Under the pieces are notes generated by a model. The model was given only the letters and a program-made list of their open reading frames with translations, searched no databases and was not told the origin of the DNA. A stretch of DNA of 64,000 bases, taken from contig CBDCTJ010000007.1 in the NCBI GenBank assembly GCA_965222115.1, positions 480,001 to 544,000 of the forward strand. The letters run 5' to 3'. A program made the translations under genes and the position numbers. Source of the DNA: Planctomycetota bacterium (GTDB taxonomy: Bacteria; Planctomycetota; PLA2; JAEUHO01). Within the stretch, counting starts at the first letter, position 1; each line of letters opens with the position of its first letter. Below, piece by piece: positions 21,938 to 35,263 of this stretch.

Positions 21938-24900
21938 TCATGGCGCGTCGGAAAGAACGCGAGCATGGAGAGGAACGCGTGTGCGCATATCGTGTTGCCA
22001 CGGTGCCGGCGCCCGTTGGACGATACGTTCAAGCTCGTGCCTTGCCCTTCGCAAATCCTCGATCCGTCCACTTCGCTCACCCAGCGCAGTCCATGCCCGA
22101 ACGCGACCGTGGGCTGAAATATGTTCATCCCACGTTTCCAACTCTGTACGTGCCTTCAAGACGCTGGCCTCGGGGAGCATGGCAAGCCAGGCACGCATCA
22201 ACGCGGCATGCCCAACGAGTCCATAGGTTTCTGCCACGTGTCGCGACGCCTCGAGTGGCTCGCGCGCCTTGTCGGGCTGATCAAGCAGCGCATAGGTCAC
22301 GCCGAGCCGGCCATAGATCTGCGCCTGATCGAGACTCACCTCGCCCTCGCCGAAATGCTCAAGGACGCCGCGTAGTCGTGAGGCAAGCGCCTCCCATTGC
22401 TCCCGAACGTCCAAGAGCCCCGACTCAACCATGCGCATGAGCAGCGTTTCGCGCGGCGCCTCCGCATCGCGGGCAGCCTTAAACCCACGCGCCACCAAGC
22501 GCTCAGCCTCCTCAAACTGACCGCACCACGCGAGGAGCAGTGCGGGTGATGTACTGAGTCGTGCCTCAAGCAGCGGTGTCTTGTTGGCCACGAGTTCGCG
22601 TCCGGCCTCAAGCAGTTGCATGGCCTCGTCCCAATACCCCATAGCAATTCGCGTCTGCCCCTCCGAGAGAAGAGCATGCGAAACAATGTCGGTGTACCCC
22701 AAACGTCCACCCATGCGTTTCGCTGCTCGTGCATGGGTAAGCGACGTTTCGAACTCGCCCAATTGCAAGTACGTTGCCGCCAACGTGGTCTGGGTCCGGG
22801 TAGCGAGGCGGGCATCGCCCGTGCGCTGAGCGATTTCCAGTACGCGTTCGGTCAACGCCACGCTATGCGGCATGTCGGCGCGCATGAATGCCAGCGTGCC
22901 GAGTTGCTCGAGCGCGTCGGTCTCGATTGCGGATTCGCCGTACAAGTGGGAGACGGCCACGGATTGTTCGAGCGCCACTTGCGCTTCTTCCATGCGTCCG
23001 AGCGCCAACTGAATGCGACCCAACGTCCACATCGCTCTCGTCGTCAAGGATCCATCGCCCACGGCACGGGCCTCTGTTACGCCGCGCTCCGCCAGCGCCA
23101 CGGCCTTGTCCTTACGGCCGAAGTATTCATAGCAAAGCGCCACCTCGGACGCCGCGCGTGAACGCAACCGCGCGTCCCCAAGCGTTTCTGCCATCTCGAG
23201 GGCCAGTCGACCACTCGCCTCGGCGCGCTGGTAGTCACCGCTTCGCCGCTGATGCTTGGCAAGCTCAAGTTGCACACGACACGCAAGCGATTGATCGCGA
23301 TGCGATTCTTCGAGTTCACGCGCGGCATCAAGCGATGCAAGCACGTCGTCGGCCGGTGCATACATGGAGAGGCACATGCCGCGCAATAACTGCAATGAAG
23401 CGAGCAAGTACGAGCTACGGGGCACGGCACCGCCCTCATGAGAATCGCGCTGCTCAAGGACATCAATGAAAGCAGACGCAAGGCGAACCCCTTGTCGATA
23501 CTCAGACATCGCCCGTGCATGTTCCACCGCCGCTTCGGCAAAGGGCAACGCGGGCCGAGCATCTCCGCCAAGCACATAGTGCCTCGAGATTGCATACGCA
23601 TCGGCCGACCCGCGCGATCGAACCATCGCACCCAATTCCAAGTGTGTCGCCTCGCGTAGCCGTTGCGGAAGTTCGCGATGGAGTACGTCTTGTACAAGAT
23701 GATGCGAAAACACGTAGGCATCGCCCTCGGGATACACCAACTGATGGTCTCGGTCAGCCGCGTGCACCATGCGCAATCCCGCCAGTTTGGAGACGCCCGC
23801 AACTTCACACACCATCTCAGGATCGAACCGGTGGCCGCAGCACGCCGCCACGTTGAGGACGCTGCGAATCGCAGAAGGCACCGCCGCGAGGCGCAGCTCA
23901 ACAAGATCCTGAATTGACGCCGGCAAGGGCACGGGGCCTTCGCGTGGAACGTTACGTTTCCCTTTGAGTTCGCGCGCAAACTCAATCAGGCAATAGGGAT
24001 TGCCCTCGGCGCTCCCGATGAGTTGGCGCACATCGGAATCTCGCGCCGCGTCGTCGGGCAATGCACACTCAACCAACGCCAACGAATCGTTGTACGTGAG
24101 TCCCGTGAGCTCATGCGCCGAGAATCGATCCAGTGCATTGAGGGCGCTCGATACGTCGTTTGGCAGTGCGCCCCTGGAAGAAACGACCATCAAGATGGGG
24201 TCGGTGGCAATCGCATACGCCAAACCGTGCACGAGTTGACGTGACGCGACGCTCGCGAAGTGAAGATCTTCAGCAATGAACACAAGTGGTCCATCGGCCG
24301 CAATTGCACGCAAGACATGCGCCCATGCCGACAGGCGAGCGGACTCGGACATGGGCTGTTTGAATGACGCTGCATGCCCAAGGAGATCGTGTGCAAATGC
24401 GGGAGCCATCGCGGCATGTTCACCCAGGAGTCGCGCGAGTCTCTGTTCGAGATCCACGGAGCCCACATGTTCGCAGAGCGCGCGATTGAGCGGCGTCAAC
24501 CCTGCCAGTTCTTCGAGGGGCTCGAAGGTGGCCGCCAACACGTGTGCATCGCCCCGTTCGTGGATCTGTCGCGTCCACTCACGAAGGAGACGGCTTTTTC
24601 CGATCCCGGCCTCGCCATAAACACATCGAATGGGACCTGCATACGCGCGCGCTTCGCGGAGTGCATCATCTAGCATGGACCGTTCAGCTTCACGGCCAAC
24701 AAAGGGCGTCGACTCGCGGGCGGTTAGCTGACGAAATGAAGCCGACACGCCCGACTGGCACTCCGTCCACCAAGGCGACGACTCACGTAGATCGAGCGTT
24801 GTTGCCACGAGCGAAGCACGATCGGGACGCGCCTGCGGATCACGCGCAAGCAAAGCACCTACAAATTTGTCGAGAAAGGACGACACATGGGGCAGCGCCG

Positions 24901-25837
24901 CGCGGAGCGACGGCGCACGCGCTCGCGACAATACTTCACGTTCGGCGAATGCATGTCGGCCCACGACAAGCTGGTAGAGCACCAATCCAAGCGCGTAGAG
25001 ATCGGTTGCAGGGGTGGCCGTCTCGCCATGCATCTGCTCGGGCGCCGCATAGAGCAAGGTGCCCACAAACTCGCCGGCCTGCGTCATCCGTTGCTGCGTA
25101 TCCAGGATGAGGGCGACACCCAAATCCGTGAGCTTTATGGCTTCATCGGGCGCAATGACGATGTTCTCAGGCTTCACGTCGCGATGCACCATGCCTGCGT
25201 CATGAATGGCTTGCAACGCCTCCGCTACACGGGCACCAATCTCACACGCCATGCGTTCAGACACGGAACCCACTTGCTGCAAGAACTCGTTGAGATTGAG
25301 ACCCTCAAGATACTCAAGCACGATGTAGGGCGTCTCACCGCCTGCATGCGCCCACGAGCCTGCACCAAGCGTTCGCACAACACCTGGGTGTGTTACGCGC
25401 ATACCCGCCTCGATTTCTTGAGCAAAACGCTCTCGCAAACTGGGTCGAGCGAGAAGGTGTGGGTGGATGACCTTCACGGCAACGCGTTCATCCATTGAGT
25501 CACGCGCTTCATACACCGTCCCCATGCCTCCCTCGCCAATCACACGAACGATGCGCAGATCATCGATGGTTGTGGGCATCGTGATGCTGGCATGGGTATC
25601 TTTCGCGGCGGCCTCACCGGGGAGTGTGTTTGAGGGCTTTAGCTCTTCCAACATCAACAGTGTTGGAAACAACTCGTGGATTCGGTCCGCCAGGTGCGGA
25701 TGCGAATGGACATACGCCTCTACGGTTGCATCCTCACCTGCCCGAACGCGCTCGATGAACTCTTCAGCCAAGGCCTCAAGCGGATCTGGCTCAGGAGGAG
25801 GGTTGGATCCAGACGGCACAGTGAGAGATCCCTCCAA
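21938..25837 (-). CDS. Ser/Thr protein kinase - AAA/STAND-like ATPase - TPR protein
   Basis: GEGGMGTVY, VAVK, HRDVKPEN, DLG, YAAPE; FVGREAE, Walker A GEAGIGKS, Walker B FIAEDLH; long TPR array; N-terminal LAEEFIERVRAGE...HPHLADRI domain. Confidence 0.93.
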   Translation of the reverse strand: MEGSLTVPSGSNPPPEPDPLEALAEEFIERVRAGEDATVEAYVHSHPHLADRIHELFPTLLMLEELKPSNTLPGEAAAKDTHASITMPTTIDDLRIVRVIGEGGMGTVYEARDSMDERVAVKVIHPHLLARPSLRERFAQEIEAGMRVTHPGVVRTLGAGSWAHAGGETPYIVLEYLEGLNLNEFLQQVGSVSERMACEIGARVAEALQAIHDAGMVHRDVKPENIVIAPDEAIKLTDLGVALILDTQQRMTQAGEFVGTLLYAAPEQMHGETATPATDLYALGLVLYQLVVGRHAFAEREVLSRARAPSLRAALPHVSSFLDKFVGALLARDPQARPDRASLVATTLDLRESSPWWTECQSGVSASFRQLTARESTPFVGREAERSMLDDALREARAYAGPIRCVYGEAGIGKSRLLREWTRQIHERGDAHVLAATFEPLEELAGLTPLNRALCEHVGSVDLEQRLARLLGEHAAMAPAFAHDLLGHAASFKQPMSESARLSAWAHVLRAIAADGPLVFIAEDLHFASVASRQLVHGLAYAIATDPILMVVSSRGALPNDVSSALNALDRFSAHELTGLTYNDSLALVECALPDDAARDSDVRQLIGSAEGNPYCLIEFARELKGKRNVPREGPVPLPASIQDLVELRLAAVPSAIRSVLNVAACCGHRFDPEMVCEVAGVSKLAGLRMVHAADRDHQLVYPEGDAYVFSHHLVQDVLHRELPQRLREATHLELGAMVRSRGSADAYAISRHYVLGGDARPALPFAEAAVEHARAMSEYRQGVRLASAFIDVLEQRDSHEGGAVPRSSYLLASLQLLRGMCLSMYAPADDVLASLDAARELEESHRDQSLACRVQLELAKHQRRSGDYQRAEASGRLALEMAETLGDARLRSRAASEVALCYEYFGRKDKAVALAERGVTEARAVGDGSLTTRAMWTLGRIQLALGRMEEAQVALEQSVAVSHLYGESAIETDALEQLGTLAFMRADMPHSVALTERVLEIAQRTGDARLATRTQTTLAATYLQLGEFETSLTHARAAKRMGGRLGYTDIVSHALLSEGQTRIAMGYWDEAMQLLEAGRELVANKTPLLEARLSTSPALLLAWCGQFEEAERLVARGFKAARDAEAPRETLLMRMVESGLLDVREQWEALASRLRGVLEHFGEGEVSLDQAQIYGRLGVTYALLDQPDKAREPLEASRHVAETYGLVGHAALMRAWLAMLPEASVLKARTELETWDEHISAHGRVRAWTALGERSGRIEDLRRARHELERIVQRAPAPWQHDMRTRVPLHARVLSDAP

Positions 25838-26009: not shown

Positions 26010-26043
26010 GCCCTAGCAGCACCCCTTGGAGGCCGACTCTATA

Positions 26044-26307
26044 GTGACTCGTTCAATTAACTTATCGCTTACAGACGAACTACGTGCGTTCCTGGATAAG
26101 AACTCAGGCGACGGAACGCTCTACTCAACGCCAAGCGAGTTCGTCCGTGACTTGATTCGTAGACAGAAGGATCGCATGGACGCCGCAGCGCTCCGAACAG
26201 CGGTGCTCGAAGGTTACGCTGCTGTTCGAGATGGTCGCACGCACGAGTACACAGGCGACCTTCGATCCTTGCTTGAGGAGCATCGTGCCGGTCGCGACGC
26301 ATCATGA
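26044..26307 (+). CDS. parD: ParD-family RHH antitoxin
   Basis: SINLSLTDELRAFL...GTLYSTPSEFVRDLIR...LRTAVLEG; GGAGG RBS; ATGA overlap with the toxin. Confidence 0.88.
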   Translation: MTRSINLSLTDELRAFLDKNSGDGTLYSTPSEFVRDLIRRQKDRMDAAALRTAVLEGYAAVRDGRTHEYTGDLRSLLEEHRAGRDAS

Positions 26308-26669
26308 CCAAACTAGTTCTTTCCGAGCGGGCGCTAGCTGATATTGACGCGATTGAACGTTACTCCGTCGAGCGTTGGGGAGAACGAGTTGCAAGCCAGT
26401 ACTTAGCAGATTTGGATGCAGCATTGGCTCGCCTAGCAAGCGACATCTCGCTATTCAGGGAGCGGTACGACTACACGGGTCGTCTTCGTTTCTACAACGT
26501 GCGCGAGCACGTGCTCGTCGGCGATATCATCGAAGGAACTGTGTTCATTCTGACGGTGTGGCACGGAAGCATGGATTTTATCGAACGATTACCGAGTATC
26601 GAGCCAGACCTCGTACGAGAGGCAGAGACACTGACATGCCAGATCGAAGTTCAAACAGATCGTGAATAA
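26304..26669 (+). CDS. parE: ParE/RelE-family toxin
   Basis: LSERALADIDAIERYSVERWGERVASQY...ILTVWHGSMD. Confidence 0.88.
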   Translation: MTKLVLSERALADIDAIERYSVERWGERVASQYLADLDAALARLASDISLFRERYDYTGRLRFYNVREHVLVGDIIEGTVFILTVWHGSMDFIERLPSIEPDLVREAETLTCQIEVQTDRE

Positions 26670-27009
26670 TTATACCCGTTCTGGCACCGCGCCTACCTCC
26701 GGTTCTGTGTGCGTCGCGTGATGCGGGCCAAGGTTTTGCGTCGACTTGCACAGGTGCAAATGGCGAGGGTGCAACTATGTAGTTAACGTTGGGTACATGT
26801 TCTACACACGCCATGTTGCGCGCGTTGCGACACTCAACACAAGCACTTCGTTTGGTGCGTGAAATGTGTGGATTTTGCCCTTCTATGAAAAGGCCTGGCA
26901 TGTCAAGTGCGAAGCCGCGTCGGCGAGCGCATTTACCGCGTTGTGCATGTGTAGTTCGGCCCCTTGAGTGCGCAACTTACCCTTACCGCCCTTGCCTTTT
27001 TGGCAGCGG

Positions 27010-27200
27010 ATCGGGGCGAATCAGATTGCCAGTCATCGTCTCTGGCGCCAGAAAACACGTCCCATTCAGGCTTCTATGCGCACTCGTGTTGGATCGAAGT
27101 TGATGCGACCCGGTGCAAGGTGGGGTCCGAGAACGAGTCTGGGTGCTGCATACTCAGTAGCGACGTCGCTATACGTCGGTCAGGGCACCGCAGTCACCCG
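27010..27200 (-). ncRNA. Bridge/seek RNA of the IS1111-type element (target- and donor-binding loops)
   Basis: Stem-internal loop-stem at 27141-27199 with guides TGCCCT and TACTGAG matching the flanks; a second loop with CATAGAAG and ATCT matching the predicted circle junction. Transcript ends unknown. Confidence 0.75.
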
Positions 27201-27265
27201 GACTCGAATTGGGGTACGTGGAAACTGACCTTATCTAATGCTTGCCTAAAGCTGTTGCGCGAGGT

Positions 27266-28315
27266 TCAGGCGGCCACTGGGCATCGAACCGGTATGTACT
27301 CTTCGCCTGTTCGCCACAGCGCAAGCATGAGCACGGAGAGCTTGCGTGCCACGGCGATGACTGCCTTGCGTTTCGCAACTGCGCCTCCACGCGCAATGAT
27401 CCGCTCACCGTGGGACTTTAGATCGCATGGCGGGCCCAGTCGCCCGAGGATGTGATGCGCGCACTGAACGAGCAACGACCGAACCATACGGTCCCCAGCC
27501 TTCGTTATGCGTAGCTGCTTGTCCATTTGGCCCGATTGATCACGCCGTGGAACCATCCCGAGAAACGCCCCGACATCTCGGCGGTCTTCAAACCGCGCCC
27601 AATCTTGAACGGTCAACATGAATGCGAGTGCCGTGAGATTGCCCACGCCTGGAATCTGAGTGAGCAACTGTGTATCTGGATATCGCTCCTTCGCCAACTC
27701 ATCGATCTTTGCGTCGTAGATCTTTACCAACTCAGTGATTCGCTCGATTGCACTGAGAATGGGATTGAGCACATCGCAGAGCTCCTCCGGAATCTCGGCC
27801 CGCGTCTTCGATCCGATGCATTTTGATGCCTGCTTACGCAACCGCCCGCCCATGCTCTTAATGACACCTCGTAGCGAGTTCACCAACTTGGTTCGTGACG
27901 ACACAAGCGCGGCTCGTGCACGAATCAGCGCAAGGTCTCGTTGTGCGGACTCCGGTCGATGCCGAATTGGGGCAAGTAGTTGGGGATCGAAGCGACCGAT
28001 TTCAGCCAACTTCTTGGCATCCGTTCGATCGGACTTGCGAGTGTTCCTGTAAATAAAGCTTAGCTCTCGCGGATTCGCGACTAGCGACTGAGCACATCGA
28101 CCTTCGACGACCCGACTCGCCCAAGGCGAATGCGTTCCCGCCTCCATCACAACTCGAGCGGTTCGGTGCTTCGAGAGAAACTCGTGAAAAGACTCGCGCG
28201 TTGTCGCGATCTCGCCTTCTTCCTTTTGAACCCCCGTGTCTTGATCCAATACGCAATACCAAGAGAACCGGTCGCCTAGGTCGATGCCAATCGTTTCGGT
28301 GATACGCTTATTCAT
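27266..28315 (-). CDS. IS110-family DEDD recombinase/transposase
   Basis: IGIDLG, VMEAG, KSDRTDA; C-terminal IPGVG...FLGMVPRRDQSG...ITKAGD, AVARKL; AGGAGG RBS before ATG 28315. Confidence 0.97.
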   Translation of the reverse strand: MNKRITETIGIDLGDRFSWYCVLDQDTGVQKEEGEIATTRESFHEFLSKHRTARVVMEAGTHSPWASRVVEGRCAQSLVANPRELSFIYRNTRKSDRTDAKKLAEIGRFDPQLLAPIRHRPESAQRDLALIRARAALVSSRTKLVNSLRGVIKSMGGRLRKQASKCIGSKTRAEIPEELCDVLNPILSAIERITELVKIYDAKIDELAKERYPDTQLLTQIPGVGNLTALAFMLTVQDWARFEDRRDVGAFLGMVPRRDQSGQMDKQLRITKAGDRMVRSLLVQCAHHILGRLGPPCDLKSHGERIIARGGAVAKRKAVIAVARKLSVLMLALWRTGEEYIPVRCPVAA

Positions 28316-28435
28316 GCTGGTAGCTCCTCCTGGGCCGTAGAGCCCGTTTTCTGTTTGCAGCACGGTTTACCGTGACTGCGCGACAGAGGAGCTACCGGCC
28401 TTTTCATCCCATCTCGGTATCTCACTTCGTATCGC

Positions 28436-30106
28436 CTACTTGATCTGCACGGGCACGTTCGTGCGCTGCCCTGTTACGACTATTATTTCCTTCACCTCGA
28501 TGGCATCGGCGTCTCCGACCCCCACGTACAATGTGTACCGGCCGGGACGCAGCGAGTCGATTAAGATATCCTCGCCGTCGGCAATTTGCTCCAGGCTTAC
28601 GTACCAAGTCTTGCCATCCGCCTCTGCCGCTTCCTCGTACCCGATCCTAACTTGTTCATCGACAATACGCTTTCCTCCACGCGAAAGCTGCATGGCGATG
28701 GCGCCAGCACGCGCTAACCGCACCACGAGACTCGGAGCGTCGCCCTCGCTAAGCATGCCGACCGTATCCTCGGTTGGAAGATACCCTGGCATTGATGTCG
28801 TTACCGTGCAGACACCCGCGGGTACGTAGAATCGGGTCGAGCGCCTTTGGCCCTCAACGCTGCAGTTTCCAAATGCGCGCCAGTCACCAGCTACATCCCG
28901 CACGTGCCAGGAGACGTTCGAATCCGGAGGAATCACCTCTCCGGGCGCAGTGACCAGCGAGACTGAAACAGCGATTGATGGAGGTAGTCTAAGATCTAGC
29001 TCCTCGTAGTCCCTCTCAAGCCTGATATCCTTGCTGATGACGTACTTCTCGAGACTAATTGAAAGGCGATAATTGCCCTTGGGGACCTCTGTCTTCACCT
29101 GGGCGGCGTCTTCGAAATCTCGCCCCAGAAGCAGTTTCCTCGACGTTGCCTCAGTTTGGGCGCTCGCGCCCCTGAATTTTACTTCGTCCACATGCGGCAA
29201 GGTGCCGTTTTGCTCAGATACTCGCAGCTTCAACCGGCAAACTTCCTGGAGTGTGCTGTCAACCTGAAGGAAAACGCTACTTGTAACTCCCCGGGCAATG
29301 GTCACTTCTTGACGAACAACTGGCGGAGGTCCATCGAGCCGGTCCTCCCAGTGGTGCCCGTATCGAATCACGATTTCTGCCTCTCCCACCGGAATCCCCT
29401 CCAGAGTGGCAGCGCCGTCTTGACCAATAGTCACATGGTCAATACCTGTTGCTGCCACAAGGTACGCTGACAACCCCAATTTGTCACTCCAACCGTTTAC
29501 GGAAATGCGCAGTGTACCTCCAGGACCAAGTGCAACTGTGCGGGCGTCTCGCGGGCCCGAAGCGCGTCCAGATGTAAGCACAGCCTTACCTGCATACCCG
29601 GGAGCGGCAATCCAGAGGCGCCGTACTTCCGACCGCAAGCCGACCGTACCTCGCGCATCAGAAGCGCCTATGAGACTTGTGTCTGCGCTCACGGGGCGAA
29701 GAATGCGCTCCAAGTAATCCATCTCCGACGAATCCCGGGACTTGACGACATAGACTTGAGCACCCTCAATTGGATGACCATCACGCGTGACGATTCGGAG
29801 CCAATCATTCGGTTGAGGTCCCTTGATACTTTCGAGACCAGCATCTTTAGCGGTATGCCCTCCAGACGACTCCCTGACGGAGGACCCACTGTTAGACGTT
29901 GGATTCGCGTTCCGTGTGACATGAGGCGTCTCGCGGTCCCCATATGGACGTAGTCCCGGTAGATCAGGATTCATAGAACGCGCGTGCTCGCCTAGCACTG
30001 CGACTGGAACCTCTTCACGGGGGGAGATCAGCATCAAGAACATACCGACCATAATGCAAGCCAGTACACCCACGGCGACCTTCTTGCCTCTACTCGGTTT
30101 TGACAT
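28436..30106 (-). CDS. Single-pass membrane protein with carboxypeptidase-regulatory-like beta-sandwich repeats, directly downstream of the RHS gene
   Basis: N-terminal TM VAVGVLACIMVGMFLMLI; DGHPIEGAQV...SDARG; APGYA; LRPGRYTL; 6 bp from the RHS stop. Confidence 0.8.
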   Translation of the reverse strand: MSKPSRGKKVAVGVLACIMVGMFLMLISPREEVPVAVLGEHARSMNPDLPGLRPYGDRETPHVTRNANPTSNSGSSVRESSGGHTAKDAGLESIKGPQPNDWLRIVTRDGHPIEGAQVYVVKSRDSSEMDYLERILRPVSADTSLIGASDARGTVGLRSEVRRLWIAAPGYAGKAVLTSGRASGPRDARTVALGPGGTLRISVNGWSDKLGLSAYLVAATGIDHVTIGQDGAATLEGIPVGEAEIVIRYGHHWEDRLDGPPPVVRQEVTIARGVTSSVFLQVDSTLQEVCRLKLRVSEQNGTLPHVDEVKFRGASAQTEATSRKLLLGRDFEDAAQVKTEVPKGNYRLSISLEKYVISKDIRLERDYEELDLRLPPSIAVSVSLVTAPGEVIPPDSNVSWHVRDVAGDWRAFGNCSVEGQRRSTRFYVPAGVCTVTTSMPGYLPTEDTVGMLSEGDAPSLVVRLARAGAIAMQLSRGGKRIVDEQVRIGYEEAAEADGKTWYVSLEQIADGEDILIDSLRPGRYTLYVGVGDADAIEVKEIIVVTGQRTNVPVQIK

Positions 30107-30112
30107 GGACTG

Positions 30113-33100
30113 CTACTTTCGGGCGCACTTTCGGTTCTTGAAGTACACAGTACACTTAATCGTGAGTGTCCATCCTCCGTATTCGTCGTTTCGTGAGTCC
30201 TGACATGTGCAGATCTTGCTTTTCACTTCAATCTGACACTCGCAGCCGTCACCCAGCGCCTGGCACTTCTTTTTGCCCTTCGATTGCGCAGAGCTAAGGG
30301 CTGACTGTTCCAAGCGCTTCTCGGCCTCCGCCGCCTTCCCTTTGGCCCGCTTGCCGTGCGACTTACAGCGACTAGTGGAAGATATGATTTCGGGGCCGAC
30401 CTCCATCCTTACTGGACCACACTGTCCGCGGCACTTATCGCGCGCTGGTTTTCCCCAGCAAGAAAGTACTTCGACTCTCGGCTTCCAATCAAAAACTCCG
30501 AAGTTCACGACGTAAGAGCGCTGCCGCTCCCAATTCACGCCGTAGGCGACATCGAGACGGCGGATGCGGTCATACGATTCACTTGTCGTCCCGAATGGAT
30601 CGCGAAATTGCACGGGATTGGCATCCGCGTACAAATAGAGAGTCACGCCTGCGTCATGCCCCAGGGGATCTCTTCCTAGGAATCTCCCGTCCTCGTGAGA
30701 GTAGTACCTTGCTCGATACTGCCAAAGCCCCGACTCCTCATCAAACCACCGCCCCGTATAGCCAACATCTTGCCCAAGCGGATCACTCCCTTGAGTCACA
30801 CCACCACGTGTAATCGTCCACTCCCCATACGGCGTATACCGATACTCCGCCGCCTCAGTTTCATCCTCCTCGCTGATGTACATGACCGAACCGAGAGCAT
30901 TTCGGTGATAGAAGTTCCGCGTCAGCTCCGTGGTGTTGCTATCCCCATCAAAGTCAAGCACATCGGCCTGCTCGAGCATGACGACCTTGTCAATACCCTG
31001 ACCATAGACAAAGCGCTGCTTCCACGTCGTCTGCCCATTGCACGCCTCGATGACCTCGACGCCAGAGAGAATGTGACGCTCGACCACCGAATCTACCGTC
31101 TTCTCCACGCGCCTACCCGCCGCATCGTACTTGTAAGACGCAATCAACAGGCCCACATTGTCGCGCACCTCAACAAGCTGATTGCGGTAATCGTAGACGT
31201 ACTCCTGATTCCCGTCGTCGGTGAGATTGCCGTTGTCGTCGTAGAGGTAGGTGGTTCCGCCAACAGCCGTGTACTGATTGAGATTGTTGGTCGTGTAGCT
31301 CGTTGACGACGCGCTTCCGCCATAAGGCGTTACGTCCTTCGTGTTTCGATTTCCATCGTCGTCCATGTCGAACTCGATAAGATCGTCATACGCATTCCCT
31401 ACAGGACTGTCGGGCGTCGTTGAGCCCATGTAGGCCTTTTCAAGTCGACGAATGTTGTCGTACACAAACGCGTCGCCCGAACTACCAGACGCACCAAAGC
31501 GCTCATACGTTCGGTCATGAACATCGTTGTAGCCATAGTCCATGCGCACCAACGTGTTGCCCACCGAATCCTTGTGATGAATGCTCGACACCTCGTTTCG
31601 AAAGCCCGAATACGAATTTTCCTGCGTGGTGTCGTTCTCGAACGTGGCCTTCTTTTCGCGCATACCGATGTAAGTATAGCTTGCAATCGTGTTTGTGCCG
31701 TCGCTGATCGTGCTGAGTGCGCCAATGTCGTTGTAGGTGTAGGTGAGATCGAGCCCGCTGGGGTACTCCTCAGTCGTTTTGCGACCCAGCGCATCGTAGA
31801 TGTTCTTGACCGTCTTGGCATGGGCCGTTCCGGTGGCGTACTCCTGCTTCTCGCTGTAGAGCAGCGAGCGCATGCCGAGTACGGCGTGCTCGAAGGTTAG
31901 CTTGTAATCGTTATCGTTGTTGGTGAGCATGCGACCCAAAGCGTCGAAGGTTCGCGTCTCACTCGTGGTACCCACAAATCCCGTCGCGCGAGTCACCGTA
32001 CGCGCTGTGTTTCGCCCAAGCGCGTCAAAGGTATCTGCGATGACATTCCCTGCCGCGTCGGTAATCTGCGTGACGTTGTCCTCTTTGTCATAGACCCAAG
32101 AGACCGTCTTGAGGTTGGGGTAGGTCATGGTCGTCTTGCGATTGAGCGCATCGTAGGCCCACGTGGTGTTGTTCCCACCGTCGTCTTTGTGGCTATCGAG
32201 GCGACTATTCTTGTCGAAACCCCACTCGGTCACTTGTGCCGCAGTGAAGTCGTCAATCGTTGTCCCGGTTGAGATCGCACGCTCACGCTTGGTCATGCGC
32301 CCCAAACCATCGAAGGTCCAGCGCGTGGGATTGCCCTCGGCGTTTACCAGGAACGTACGATTTCCACGGCTGTCGTAGTAAAGATCCGTGGTCAGCGAGT
32401 TGGTGCCGACAAGCCGGTCTTTCTCAGTAACCGAGGTCTTGCGACCCAGCTCGTCATACGTAGCCGAGTATTCGTGCGTTACGCTGCTCGCGCCGTCGAT
32501 TTCCTCAATCGACGTGGCCGTCACATTGCCGTTTTTGTCAAGCGTGCTGGTCACGACATTGCCCATCGCGTCTTCCACTTCGATTCTTCGCCCCGCGGCA
32601 TCGTAATCGAAGAGCGTGTCATTACTGAGCGCGTCCGTGATCTTGCTGACTTGGCCGGTCTTGAGGCGCGTCATGGTCGTGACCGCATCCGAGTAGGTGG
32701 TGCCCGGCTGCTTTCGAAGGTCTGACGTCTTCCAGTGGCGACCACGCTCGTCAAAGTAGCGCGTCGAACGTTGCAGCTCGGTGTTCGAAGAATCGTAGCG
32801 CTGGATCTTCGTCACATTGCCCGCGTCGTCCAGCGTGTACTTCGTGTAGTGATTCAGCTCATCCGTCACCTTCGTGCGGCGATCAAAGAGATCGTACGTG
32901 TAGGTCGTGTCGTTGTTGCGTCCATCCGTCACGGTTGTGAGATTGCCATTGTCATCGTAAGCATTGGTGCGCGTAGAGGCTTCCGTTGCGCCGTAGCCAC
33001 GAACATGCGTCGCCACGAGATCGCGCTCGTTGTAAGTCCACGCGATCTTGTTGCCCTCGGGCAAAGTCGTTTGGGTGCGATTTCCATTGGCATCGTAGGT

Positions 33101-34960
33101 GTGCGACGTCGTTCGCGTGGTTGTGGAGTCAATGTCTTCAACCTGCGTGGCGAGTTGATCGCGATCGGTATAAGTGTAGGACGTGGTGATCCAAGGATGA
33201 CTCGTGCTGCGCGTGCCGTCCTTGTCGATATTCTCGACTTCGCGCTTGGTGAGGTTGCTGTTTCCGTCGTAGGAAAACTTCACCTTGTAGTTGAGCGGCG
33301 CGGGCGCTTGCGTTTCCGTGACCCGGCGAAGATTGTCGAACGTACGCGTCGTCACATTGCTTAGGGGGTCGGTCACTGTGGTGACATTCAGCGCACTGTC
33401 ATATCCGTAAATCGTCGTGATCGCCAAGCCAGTCGGATCCACGGTGGTCTTCTCAAGCAAATCCTCATTAGGGCCAGAGGAAAAGTAGGTGTAGGTCGTC
33501 TCCGTACCTTCCTCGTCCGTGAATTTTGTAATCTGCCCGTAGGAGTTGAACGTGGTGGTGGTGCTTGCGGATTGGCTCGCGGGATTCGTGACCGTGGGGT
33601 GCGTCACGCCGGTTCGATTACCGCTGCTGTCGACCGTGTAGGTCCAGGCATTGCCGTTTTTGTCCGTGTAGCCCGTCATGTAGTTGCCGGAGTTGTAGGT
33701 CCAGCTCTCCACAATATCGGAACTTCCATTCGTGCTCGTGTCCGTTGTCTTCTGGCGACGTTCGGTCAAGTTGTTCTCGCTGTCCCAGGTGAAGTCCACG
33801 CGGTTGTCCCGTGGATAGACGATGGTATCCAACTGATCGCCCGTGTAGCGATACTCCGTCACGTACTTGGCCGTGCCGCCAACGAGCATGTCCGTTTTAT
33901 CTACGAGCGAGCCAGTAAAGTGATAGCGATGAACGTTCCCCTCGCCGTCCGTGCGCGTGGTGAGTCCCGAGGAATAGGAATAGTCCACGTCGTCGCCGTC
34001 AATCGTGACCGTCGAGATCTTCTTTGTTGAGCCGTCGTAGGCATACTCGTAAACCGTGTTGCCGCGGCCATCAACGATACTCGTGAGACGATCCGAACCG
34101 TCATAATGCCATGTCGTGGTGATGCCCGACGTCTGGTCAGCCGTCGTCGGCGTTTTGATGGTTTTGAGGTTGTTGTTGGCGTCGTACGTGAACGTCCACT
34201 CACGACCGGCGGGATCTTCAATCTCGGTGATGTAGCCGTCGGTGTTTGACGTGATGGTAAAGGACTTGCCCCGCGTATCAGTAATGTCGGTCAGCTGAAG
34301 ATTCGAATCGTAATCAAAATCAATGATGTTTCCGTTGCGATCACCGAATTCATTGGGCATTCCATTGGAATCGAACAAAATCGTCTCGCCCGTCTTGCTG
34401 GTCAGAAGATAGTCGCCGTTGGTGTCTGTCGTGAGCGTATCGGTTACCAAGCAGGTCTCGGGAGAATAAGAAACGGCATCCCAGCCAAAGACGTTGATCT
34501 CGCCGGATGAGTGGCGAATCCGAACCTCGTGCCCACCGTCGCCATCAGGATCGTTCTCGTCGAGGATGACTTTCTCGGCGGTTGTCTCCCAGCTTCCAAT
34601 CGCACCCGCGCCCATCTGCGTGACACCATCAATCATGCTGCGCCAGCGAACTGACAAGTTCAACGAGGACACACGCCCGGGGAACGTGAGGATCGCGTGA
34701 TCGACAAACAACTCACCGCTACGCACATCCACACCTTCCGGAGAACTGGTCGGCGCTGACGGGCAGCCGCACCCACCACATGCAGAACATGCGCTAACCG
34801 TGGATGTGTTGTCCCAGAACGGGTCGGCATACGGACTTCCGCTACCCTCTGCGCCATGCCTCGTAAGCGCGAATAGGGCCACTAGGGCGCAAGTAGCCAA
34901 GATTAGAACAAGTGCGCGACCCGCGGATGAGTTGGAAATGCGGCGGATAATCTGCGTCAT
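30113..34960 (-). CDS. RHS/YD-repeat protein with N-terminal signal/TM segment and Cys-rich C-terminal cargo
   Basis: Many YDxxGR/N repeats; GVDVRSGEL plug-like motif; core YTGRWFDEESGLWQYRARYY...RDPLG...NPVQFRDPFG; GAGGGG RBS before ATG 34960. Confidence 0.95.
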   Translation of the reverse strand: MTQIIRRISNSSAGRALVLILATCALVALFALTRHGAEGSGSPYADPFWDNTSTVSACSACGGCGCPSAPTSSPEGVDVRSGELFVDHAILTFPGRVSSLNLSVRWRSMIDGVTQMGAGAIGSWETTAEKVILDENDPDGDGGHEVRIRHSSGEINVFGWDAVSYSPETCLVTDTLTTDTNGDYLLTSKTGETILFDSNGMPNEFGDRNGNIIDFDYDSNLQLTDITDTRGKSFTITSNTDGYITEIEDPAGREWTFTYDANNNLKTIKTPTTADQTSGITTTWHYDGSDRLTSIVDGRGNTVYEYAYDGSTKKISTVTIDGDDVDYSYSSGLTTRTDGEGNVHRYHFTGSLVDKTDMLVGGTAKYVTEYRYTGDQLDTIVYPRDNRVDFTWDSENNLTERRQKTTDTSTNGSSDIVESWTYNSGNYMTGYTDKNGNAWTYTVDSSGNRTGVTHPTVTNPASQSASTTTTFNSYGQITKFTDEEGTETTYTYFSSGPNEDLLEKTTVDPTGLAITTIYGYDSALNVTTVTDPLSNVTTRTFDNLRRVTETQAPAPLNYKVKFSYDGNSNLTKREVENIDKDGTRSTSHPWITTSYTYTDRDQLATQVEDIDSTTTRTTSHTYDANGNRTQTTLPEGNKIAWTYNERDLVATHVRGYGATEASTRTNAYDDNGNLTTVTDGRNNDTTYTYDLFDRRTKVTDELNHYTKYTLDDAGNVTKIQRYDSSNTELQRSTRYFDERGRHWKTSDLRKQPGTTYSDAVTTMTRLKTGQVSKITDALSNDTLFDYDAAGRRIEVEDAMGNVVTSTLDKNGNVTATSIEEIDGASSVTHEYSATYDELGRKTSVTEKDRLVGTNSLTTDLYYDSRGNRTFLVNAEGNPTRWTFDGLGRMTKRERAISTGTTIDDFTAAQVTEWGFDKNSRLDSHKDDGGNNTTWAYDALNRKTTMTYPNLKTVSWVYDKEDNVTQITDAAGNVIADTFDALGRNTARTVTRATGFVGTTSETRTFDALGRMLTNNDNDYKLTFEHAVLGMRSLLYSEKQEYATGTAHAKTVKNIYDALGRKTTEEYPSGLDLTYTYNDIGALSTISDGTNTIASYTYIGMREKKATFENDTTQENSYSGFRNEVSSIHHKDSVGNTLVRMDYGYNDVHDRTYERFGASGSSGDAFVYDNIRRLEKAYMGSTTPDSPVGNAYDDLIEFDMDDDGNRNTKDVTPYGGSASSTSYTTNNLNQYTAVGGTTYLYDDNGNLTDDGNQEYVYDYRNQLVEVRDNVGLLIASYKYDAAGRRVEKTVDSVVERHILSGVEVIEACNGQTTWKQRFVYGQGIDKVVMLEQADVLDFDGDSNTTELTRNFYHRNALGSVMYISEEDETEAAEYRYTPYGEWTITRGGVTQGSDPLGQDVGYTGRWFDEESGLWQYRARYYSHEDGRFLGRDPLGHDAGVTLYLYADANPVQFRDPFGTTSESYDRIRRLDVAYGVNWERQRSYVVNFGVFDWKPRVEVLSCWGKPARDKCRGQCGPVRMEVGPEIISSTSRCKSHGKRAKGKAAEAEKRLEQSALSSAQSKGKKKCQALGDGCECQIEVKSKICTCQDSRNDEYGGWTLTIKCTVYFKNRKCARK

Positions 34961-35263
34961 AATGAATCCCCTCAGACTCAAGATTACGTACTCAAAGCGA
35001 AAGCTCCTTCACGTGGCAGATACCGAGCCGTCCACCACGACTTCTCCCGACTCTACACCCGCGCAGGGGGCCGAATTGCAAAACCTCGTTTTTTTGCCCT
35101 GTGTGGGTAGCTACGGCAATTTTAAGGAACCTGACAATTGTCACCGCGCGCGCACGCGCGAGCGCAAATGCAGTGCCGTGTTCACTATCGACGGTGGGAT
35201 CGGCACTTACGTCGAATTCTCGTTCGTATAAGCATGCTTTCGTTTGTCGTTCTAAAAACTAGA

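Follow-up and report, generated by a model that had tools for sequence, protein, structure and literature searches.

A probable two-loop bridge RNA and its target register in an IS1111-group insertion sequence from a Planctomycetota bacterium

The window analyzed here, a 64,000-nucleotide stretch of a Planctomycetota bacterium genome (GenBank assembly GCA_965222115.1, contig CBDCTJ010000007.1, positions 480,001 to 544,000), carries on its minus strand an insertion sequence (IS) with a recombinase gene and, starting 66 nt past the stop codon of that gene, a 59-nt hairpin (27199-27141, minus strand). An initial annotation of this stretch had named the hairpin the target-binding loop of an IS110/IS1111-type guide RNA and had read its two arms as spelling the element's own insertion site. 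Our analysis, which draws on sequence anatomy, helix covariation, guide-flank and guide-end covariation, and the genomic copies with their flanks, indicates that the hairpin is quite probably the target loop of a ∼140-nt bridge RNA in an intact IS1111-group element, that its guides are likely read in the register common to the family, and that its likely target is a dispersed genomic repeat. Throughout, a caret in a sequence marks the insertion point.

The hairpin, its relatives, and the recombinase gene

The genome comprises 7 contigs (4.55 Mb) and holds three full copies of the element at 98-100% identity, namely c1 (the window copy), c2 (C3:484749-486280), and c3 (contig C7, near 2.36 Mb). 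The minus-strand sequence from 27199 to 27141 had been transcribed exactly, and the outer stem, internal loop, and inner 6-bp hairpin proposed for it do fold: with 7-nt feet on either side (27206-27134, 73 nt), the segment has a minimum free energy (MFE) of -35.6 kcal/mol, versus -22.07 ± 3.03 for shuffled sequences (z -4.47; 0/200 shuffles as stable). The fold of the whole 396-nt non-coding region was not unusual against shuffles (z -0.70). Removal of the IS (28412-26880) does rebuild GATACCG-AG-GGCAAAA; TGCCCT is indeed the reverse complement of AGGGCA; and TACTGAG equals TACCGAG at 6/7 positions, the mismatch setting a guide U opposite a bottom-strand G. The hairpin does not differ by a single letter among c1, c2, and c3, despite their differing flanks, so the copies themselves offer no covariation.

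Among relatives, the aligned downstream regions share (i) a basal stem, (ii) an outer stem (GGGUG-A-CUGC / GCAG-CACCC), (iii) a variable 5' arm, (iv) a variable inner hairpin, and (v) a variable 3' arm ending in (G/C)AG, and they carry a second RNA module of the form GGACCCCA..U-GCAC-(hairpin)-GUGC-G-(C/G/A)AU(A/G)(G/C)AAG. In a 17-sequence alignment, 87.6% of cells were paired, versus 32-40% with partners slid by 1-3 columns, and 17 pairs were compensatory, a result equaled by 0/500 shuffles; RNAalifold independently recovered the outer stem and both stems of the second module. A covariance model built from that alignment gave 85 full-length matches in 81 sources, downstream of the gene in almost every locus, and exactly five in the element's own genome, which correspond to c1, c2, c3, and two tandem extras at c3. 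For the 82 distinct sequences among the 85 matches, 87.5% of cells were paired (25-41% when slid), with 21 compensatory pairs (0/500 shuffles), and helices 2-5 were 90-100% paired. Moreover, G-U pairs are frequent, which suits an RNA that reads as the gene strand. We consider it very probable that the 59-nt hairpin is the target loop of such a bridge RNA (also termed seekRNA).

The element itself is an intact member of the IS110 family, IS1111 group, and belongs to an RNA-guided class known since 2024. Its recombinase gene is intact, as had been proposed; the protein matches the NF033542 model "IS110 family RNA-guided transposase" at 219.8 bits (cut-off 140) and has the PF01548 and PF02371 domains. 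In a protein alignment of relatives (A1), D12, E58, D96, D99, and G253-P256-G262 are invariant; S261 lies within the G..P....SG motif, yet outside the list of invariant columns of that alignment. The C-terminal part of the protein can be aligned with two transposases of solved structure (PDB), ISCro4 and IS621, with GMVPRRDQSG opposite PRRYESG of ISCro4. Scanning 185,579 species genomes returned 594 candidates, 509 of them confirmed relatives, of which 80 (45-51% identical) were kept; their hosts are Acidobacteriota, Actinomycetota, Gemmatimonadota, Planctomycetota, and other metagenome-assembled genomes. The host lineage is poorly sampled, as had been stated, since its order counts 40 species genomes and its genus this genome only; relatives at E ≤ 1e-40 occur in 11/40 of these order genomes (its own included), the best being 64-49% identical. 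The same description does not extend to the element family: in a large protein collection, 7699/8000 scored candidates match the recombinase at E ≤ 1e-30, and the nearest protein outside the cluster of its own genome is 66% identical.

Guide-flank covariation and the probable target register and repeat

In the passages cited here from Siddiquee et al. (2024, PMC11187229), the seekRNAs of IS1111 elements are placed in the 3' non-coding region, and within them the segment matching the top strand precedes, in the 5' to 3' direction, the one matching the bottom strand. The arms of the present hairpin pair with opposite strands, as the initial annotation had recognized, and they do so in this same order, the top-strand arm being 5' and the bottom-strand arm 3'. 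To compare arms with flanks, we assembled 88 elements, of which 80 had both ends located and 76 had both stem anchors; 17 were dropped (c2 and c3 as duplicates, five because of truncated flanks, and ten because of misassigned ends, some of them with left flanks that lacked the final AG), leaving 59 usable elements with 49 distinct guide pairs. The arm-flank covariation anticipated among homologous elements was found for both arms, and it upholds the assignment of the hairpin as a target-binding loop. Across the 49 pairs, the 5' arm was complementary to its own right flank at a mean of 6.29/8 positions versus 4.22 (SD 0.92) for the flanks of other elements, and the 3' arm matched its own left flank at 3.80/5 non-core positions versus 1.57 for cross pairs; none of 2000 permutations of the flank assignment reached the observed mean for either arm. 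Clear single cases are L036, in which AAUUGGAC fits G^TCCAATT; L029, in which CAUUCAUCGC fits G^CGATGAATG; and L058, in which UAAUCAG equals TAATCAG. Judged from sequence, the 49 distinct guide pairs, which follow their own flanks, support a specificity that is readable, as had been suggested, and that appears to have been re-aimed naturally many times.

The register in which the right guide is read was then taken from the family. The termini, AG^ATGG GATGAGAAGGCCGG ... CCGGCCTTCTCAT GGAAG^, are nearly invariant across relatives, which confirms AG as the core, and AG stands at both junctions of the three own copies and of the 59 relatives retained for the guide-flank test. The core G is faced by a C, located at loop index 8-11, in nearly all 49 guide pairs. 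Of the four closest relatives, L013, L014, and L015 have this base 2 nt ahead of the conserved GACG inner stem, and L012 has it offset by one. Applied to the window element, this register places C27179 opposite the core G and lets 27187-27180 (UGCCCUGA) specify TCAGGGCA. The 5' arm would thus specify G^TCAGGGCA and not AG^GGCA, the core position being shifted by 4 nt toward the 3' end of the arm relative to the original placement. The earlier reading that the guides spell the element's own insertion site therefore stands for the left arm only, because the right arm, expecting G^TCAGGGCA, matches its own flank at 0/8 positions.

The flanks of c1 (GATACCGAG^GGCAAAATCCACAC) and c2 (AATACGGAG^TACGGGAAAAATCCACAC) belong to a dispersed repeat of ∼30 bp, present in 36 genomic copies at ≤4 mismatches, with the consensus (G)ATACGG(T/A/C)G-T(A/C)(C/A)GGGCAAAATCCACAC(T)TTTC; the flanks of c3 are CACACTTGAG^TCCGGGTAACGGG. 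Insertion is site- and orientation-specific, without duplication beyond the core: c1 and c2 share both the repeat and the position within it, and c3 lies off the repeat. We think it likely that the family register is the correct one and that this repeat is the cognate target, which can be written as (G)ATAC(G/C)G-(T/A)G-T(A/C)(C/A)GGGCAAAATCCACAC. Scored against both guides, the AG-core repeat consensus reaches 10/13 (33 AG sites genome-wide are as good or better), and the repeat member GATACCGAG^TCAGGGCG reaches 11/13; only 5 of the 445,534 AG sites in the genome score ≥11/13, and one of them is a repeat member. The exact form G^TCAGGG is found in 4/36 repeat copies, and only the AG-core minority of the copies should be usable as targets. 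In the family register, c2 matches at 5/8 positions of the right flank and 9/13 in total (277 AG sites as good), and c3 at 6/8 and 8/13 (1820 AG sites as good). Insertion of other copies at unrelated sites, which the initial annotation had set against its own proposal, is literally what c2 (TACGGAG^TACGGG) and c3 (ACTTGAG^TCCGGG) display; both sites are nevertheless related to the corrected target. The ideal site of the original register, TACTGAGGGCA, has no exact genomic match, and none of its 34 one-mismatch sites falls in the target repeat.

The window copy departs from this pattern by a 4-nt gap. Its right flank is 4 nt shorter than all 36/36 repeat copies before GGCAAAATCC; with TCAG restored, the c1 site would score 12/13, above any present genomic site, and the sole mismatch would be the U·G pair noted above. 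With the gap beside the junction, the AGGGCA match first noticed would represent the distal six bases of a true eight-base match, displaced. The right junction of c1 is reproduced in contigs of runs X1-X3 and is thus not an assembly slip. Because conservative recombination cannot remove bases, a loss after insertion, for example by slippage between the AGs of AG-TC-AG, is the likeliest account, and we lean toward the 4 nt having been lost in this way.

Several observations weigh against the overall explanation. As found, c1 matches the family register at 0/8 positions of its right flank (GGCAAAAT) and at 4/13 in total, a score that ∼42% of the 445,534 genomic AG sites equal or exceed, and among the 49 its right flank gives the poorest match whichever register is scanned (3/8). 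At none of the three insertion sites do both guides match well, and no AG site in the genome scores 12-13/13. The 4-nt loss is deduced from paralogous repeats and not from an empty orthologous site, no such site with the right flank having been found in 28 family genomes. Further, related elements are not independent, so that the permutation counts overstate significance; the 82-sequence structural alignment (A3) was fitted to the model, which biases it toward structure; and the basal helix is only 54% paired. The donor loop folded alone is no better than shuffles (z +0.47), Rfam 15 gave 0 matches across 26500-28700 even at E ≤ 1 (which says only that no curated model fits), and no public run on record as RNA contains the stretch.

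The main alternative retains the original register, in which C27183-U27182 read the core AG and c1 is a clean insertion into a shorter repeat variant (GATACCGAGGGCAAAA) with nothing lost. It matches c1 at 6/6 plus 6/7 positions, it can draw on a core-to-inner-stem distance that is flexible in the family (3 nt intervene in L033), and it agrees with a junction reproduced in independent contig sets. However, it would put the core-facing base at index 6, outside the range of 7-13 seen in all 49 guide pairs, at odds with L013-L015 (and with L012, offset by one), in which the position relative to the GACG stem is fixed as described above, and it would leave only 4 flank bases to be read instead of the usual 7-9. 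The extra 4 nt are present in every one of the 36 repeat copies, and TACGGG at c2 and TCCGGG at c3 fit the family register and not AG^GGCA. We therefore judge the original register improbable. The two registers differ in what they predict: the family register would favor an AG-core TCAGGGCA target over the TACGGGCA form, and both far over the shorter junction as found, whereas under the original register the shorter junction would be best.

Two further explanations dispense with a guide RNA altogether. The hairpin might be no more than a structural element of the 3' untranslated region (3'-UTR), acting as a terminator, stabilizer, or protein scaffold and resembling the flanks by chance, as a strong stem-loop soon after a stop codon and the lack of any run on record as RNA holding the stretch would allow; this is very improbable, given that the loop arms vary while the stems are conserved, that the arms track their own flanks (0/2000 permutations), and that no T-run follows the stem. 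Alternatively, the conserved region might act as DNA, being a recombinase binding site like the subterminal repeats. The DNA of the donor 3' arm does copy the right-end tip and was apparently used as a cryptic end (in 194-bp tails on contig C1, described below), but compensatory helices with many G-U pairs, which on the other strand would be A-C, argue for RNA, and published relatives, in the passages cited from PMC11187229, work through an RNA that co-purifies with the enzyme. We give this explanation equally little credence, and we retain the two-loop guide RNA read in the family register.

Some features of the repeat stand apart from its role as a target. It can also be written (G)ATACGGTGTACGGGCAAAATCCACACTTTTC, is sometimes preceded by extra GATACGG units, and is represented in the window by 28421-28413 and 26879-26861. 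Copies often follow the end of a long open reading frame (ORF) by ≤120 nt in the same orientation (13/36 copies versus 281/3000 random positions), and contig C3 additionally has three pairs of inverted copies spaced 320-505 bp. An origin of the repeat as the terminus of another transposon was not supported, since Pfam scans of neighboring genes in two regions showed no transposase; the genes beside it in these regions encode a pPIWI-associated nuclease, a DACNV domain, an ABC ATPase, and DUFs. An integron attC origin was dropped, as no inverted-repeat core sites were visible. The gene beside c2 (L109:3081-4223, contig C3) has a predicted pPIWI-associated nuclease domain (PF18165, 72.9 bits) and a DACNV sensor-domain protein lies on the other side, so that the neighborhood of c2 looks like a variable, defense-type region.

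Donor loop, proposed mechanism, and relation to known systems

The second module of the RNA corresponds to both ends of the element. The 7-mer that follows GUGC-G equals the element's own right tip in 66/68 elements, the two misses being extraction errors, and the two covary: ATGGAAG in 59, ATAGAAG in 6 (c1-c3, L013, L014, and L073), and ATACAAG in 1 (L012). The donor 5' arm contains the complement of bases 2-5 of the left tip in 8/8 elements with variant tips (ATGA, TTGA, or TAGG) and in 33/53 with ATGG tips; it reads CUCA for ATGA (5/5), CUCAA for TTGA (1/1), and UUCCU or CUCCU for TAGG (2/2). Since the donor arms match both element tips, the RNA qualifies as a two-loop bridge RNA in the sense in which Durrant et al. 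(2024, PMC11208160) use the term in the passages cited. As a weak additional signal, the donor 3' arm bases after the core (27070-27069 in the window) agreed with the first two bases of the right flank at 0.98 of 2 positions versus 0.60 when permuted (0/5000). In c1 these bases are CC, which agrees with the CCGCG that flanks the C1 tails on the right and disagrees with the current target repeat.

These features suggest a pathway modeled on published relatives. Production and binding of the RNA, the chemistry and promoter involved, and the sequence in which events took place at the 4-nt gap are all inferred. The element would excise as a circle joining ...CATAGA-AG-ATGGGATG..., and a junction promoter could form there, with TTGACA at 26906-26901 lying 17 nt from a hexamer that spans the circle junction. 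The 3' part of the recombinase mRNA would then be processed into the bridge RNA. Loop 1 would read the target: its 5' arm (UGCCCUGA, then C) would base-pair with the top strand at the right half-site, G^TCAGGGCA, and its 3' arm (UACUG-AG) with the bottom strand at the left half-site, TACYG-AG. Loop 2 would read the element's ends, its 5' arm CCCA pairing with the left-end tip and its 3' arm CAUAGAAG with the right-end tip. Target and donor would thereby be brought into synapsis on the two loops, and a DEDD/Ser recombinase tetramer would carry out serine-mediated strand exchange at the AG core without duplication. The circle-junction promoter was judged by eye and is not claimed here; a sigma-70 promoter scan of 26800-28500 returned 0 sites. 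Contigs of four runs from one study contained no joint across the element and no circle junction.

The guide-RNA region is also found in rearranged forms. Copy c3 (L003, C7:2359821-2362002) ends in three tandem 323-bp units, each holding a whole bridge RNA plus a right end. Its joint, ...CATAGAAG^TCCGGGTGAC, follows an internal ...TTCGAG^ at the foot of the target loop (equivalent to 27204/27203 in the window), its true right flank begins with TCCGGGT, as at the joint, and the tandem joint also appears in contigs of runs X1 and X4. An unrelated family member, L076:1177-2250, shows a similar arrangement of three tandem "bridge RNA + right end" units, preceded by an initial, partial target loop; here the joint is GGAAG^CACCCC, comes after an internal GCAG^, and shares only AG with that internal site, which points to recombinase action and not to homology. 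On contig C1, two 194-bp right-end tails (L006 and L007; C1:603929-604122 and C1:602195-602388), 93% like the element, start exactly after the internal CATAGAAG that encodes the donor 3' arm, with GATACCAAG as left flank and CCGCGTTTTTTC as right flank; three left-end stubs nearby have the left flanks GATACCGAG (two) and GATACCAAA (one). A possible, though doubtful, explanation is that the guide-RNA gene is itself a recombinase substrate, with the donor 3' arm DNA serving as a cryptic end (C1 tails) and an internal AG being joined to the right end (the c3 and L076 arrays). If so, the RNA module would be separately amplifiable, and perhaps separately mobile, and guide-RNA dosage would be independent of the enzyme gene.

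Compared with the seekRNA elements ISEc11, ISKpn4, ISPa11, and ISPst6, as presented in the passages cited from Siddiquee et al. (2024, PMC11187229), the window element shares (i) a recombinase of the 330-350 aa class with DEDD and G..P....SG motifs, (ii) subterminal inverted repeats, with the gene followed by a long non-coding region, and (iii) guide matches that overlap at the insertion point, with close relatives naturally re-aimed and stems kept. It differs in that its second loop copies both element tips, whereas theirs are described in those passages with target matches in an 82-96-nt RNA; in addition, the present element shows no sequence match to a curated RNA family, its nearest outside protein is only 66% identical, and its dispersed-repeat target is new. 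For 93% of IS1111 elements, a bridge RNA in the right end is predicted in the passages cited from Durrant et al. (2024, PMC11208160). With the bridge RNA of IS621 and the IS110 group, as given there, the element shares a target loop and a donor loop, one arm per strand, and a 2-nt core, but its RNA gene follows the recombinase gene and occupies the right end, whereas that of IS621 precedes it in the left end, and its arm order is reversed. The subterminal repeats are long here, unlike those of IS621, and the protein match to IS621 is limited to the C-terminal domain (E 2.4e-5). The core of IS621 is CT; that of the present element, on the gene strand, is AG. Some IS1111 members home to repeats, namely IS4321/IS5075 to Tn21 inverted repeats, ISPa11 to REP sequences, and ISKpn4/ISPst6 to attC sites, and the window element resembles them in using one fixed position and orientation within a short recurring sequence. 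Unlike their targets, the repeat here is not palindromic and often lies just downstream of gene ends. ISPpu9, in the passages cited from Pares-Guillen et al. (2025, PMC12288879), likewise has a small-RNA module downstream of its recombinase gene and extra copies of it apart from the gene; in contrast, the extra copies here are tandem (c3, L076) and hold the guide RNA itself. The small RNA of ISPpu9 is reported in the same source to be dispensable for transposition.

Genome-writing tools are being developed from RNA-guided recombinases of the IS110/IS1111 kind, which owe their value to guides open to reading and rewriting. The window element adds little in kind; the surrounding clade is useful, since it combines a near-invariant scaffold (ends, stems, and the GACUGCG...GCAGC frame) with at least 49 natural guide pairs and their targets from many phyla of mostly uncultured bacteria, and thus amounts to a ready table of reprogramming-tolerant positions together with the register. 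The element also carries a caution, in that a perfect-looking guide-flank match in a single copy may be out of register, which only the family and the other copies reveal.

Element anatomy and neighboring genes

The features of the element are collected in Table 1. The element starts with ATGG-GATGAAAAGGCCGG and finishes with GGCCTTTTCAT-AGAAG, and the conserved termini of its relatives read ATGG+GATGA(A/G)AAGGCCGG on the left and CCGGCCTT(C/T)TCAT+(A/G)(G/C)AAG on the right. Its subterminal repeats are a perfect 11 bp, in the 7-17 bp range of the IS1111 group, each 5 nt inside the element end, with the extensions ATGGG on the left and AGAAG on the right. The non-coding sequence measures 386 nt downstream of the recombinase gene versus 97 nt upstream.

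Table 1. Coordinates of the insertion sequence, its RNA module, and its flanks in the window
Feature	Position	Strand	Basis or remark
Whole insertion sequence, copy c1	26880..28412	minus	1533 bp; ends shared by three 98-100% identical copies, and termini conserved in relatives
Recombinase gene, 349 aa + stop	27266..28315	minus	PF01548 66.9 bits (cut-off 29), PF02371 78.8 bits
Left subterminal inverted repeat ATGAAAAGGCC	28397..28407	minus	Reverse complement of 26895-26885; family-wide conservation
Right subterminal inverted repeat GGCCTTTTCAT	26885..26895	minus	Sequence and termini of relatives
Left flank GATACCG + core AG, left half of target repeat	28413..28421	minus	GATACCGAG also flanks two degraded left-end stubs on contig C1
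Right flank GGCAAAATCCACACATTTC, right half of target repeat minus first 4 nt	26861..26879	minus	36/36 repeat copies carry T(A/C)(C/A)G-type bases before GGCAAAATCC
Outward-facing -35-like TTGACA near right end	26901..26906	minus	CTTGA(C) conserved in family alignment; putative circle-junction promoter role only
Leader structure: long stem GGUAGCUCCUC / Shine-Dalgarno region GAGGAGCUACC, enclosing two small hairpins	28316..28399	minus	MFE -46.7 kcal/mol, z -4.87, 0/200 shuffles
Probable bridge/seekRNA gene, ∼140 nt, two loops	27067..27206	minus	Covariance model R1 122 bits, E 3e-26; 85 related places matched over the full length
Target loop outer stem, 5' strand GGGUG-A-CUGC	27190..27199	minus	Helix 2: 99% paired, 7/9 pairs change both sides
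Predicted top-strand-pairing arm GUGCCCUGAC	27179..27188	minus	C27179 faces core G and 27187-27180 specify right flank TCAGGGCA in the family register
Target loop inner hairpin CGACGU / ACGUCG	27161..27178	minus	Helix 3: 90% paired, 3/4 pairs compensatory
Predicted bottom-strand-pairing arm UACUGAG (left flank + core AG)	27153..27159	minus	c1 flank TACCGAG matches 6/7 with U·G
Target loop outer stem, 3' strand GCAG-CACCC	27141..27149	minus	Structural alignments
Donor loop 5' arm GGACCCCA	27121..27128	minus	CCCA complementary to left-end tip TGGG
Donor loop stem GCAC/GUGC + inner hairpin (27110-27092)	27080..27116	minus	Helix 4 100% paired, near-invariant; helix 5 95%, 4/4 pairs compensatory
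Donor loop 3' arm CAUAGAAG	27071..27078	minus	Copies the element's own right-end tip

The leader upstream of the recombinase gene is predicted to adopt a three-way fold, whose closing stem would sequester the Shine-Dalgarno sequence by pairing beside the left repeat; the same stem shape, with changed letters, is also present in the relatives L012 and L013. Adjoining the insertion site, two overlapping small ORFs occupy 26026-26669 (plus strand), the first of which has a sub-threshold ParD antitoxin match (28 bits versus a cut-off of 46.2), and the second of which matches no family and has the size and position of a ParE/RelE-type toxin. Judged by translation alone, two long ORFs lie on either side of the region: a 1622-aa ORF at 30113-34981 (minus strand) appears to be rich in YD/RHS-type repeats, and a 1299-aa ORF at 21938-25837 (minus strand) resembles a Ser/Thr kinase with a long helical-repeat tail.

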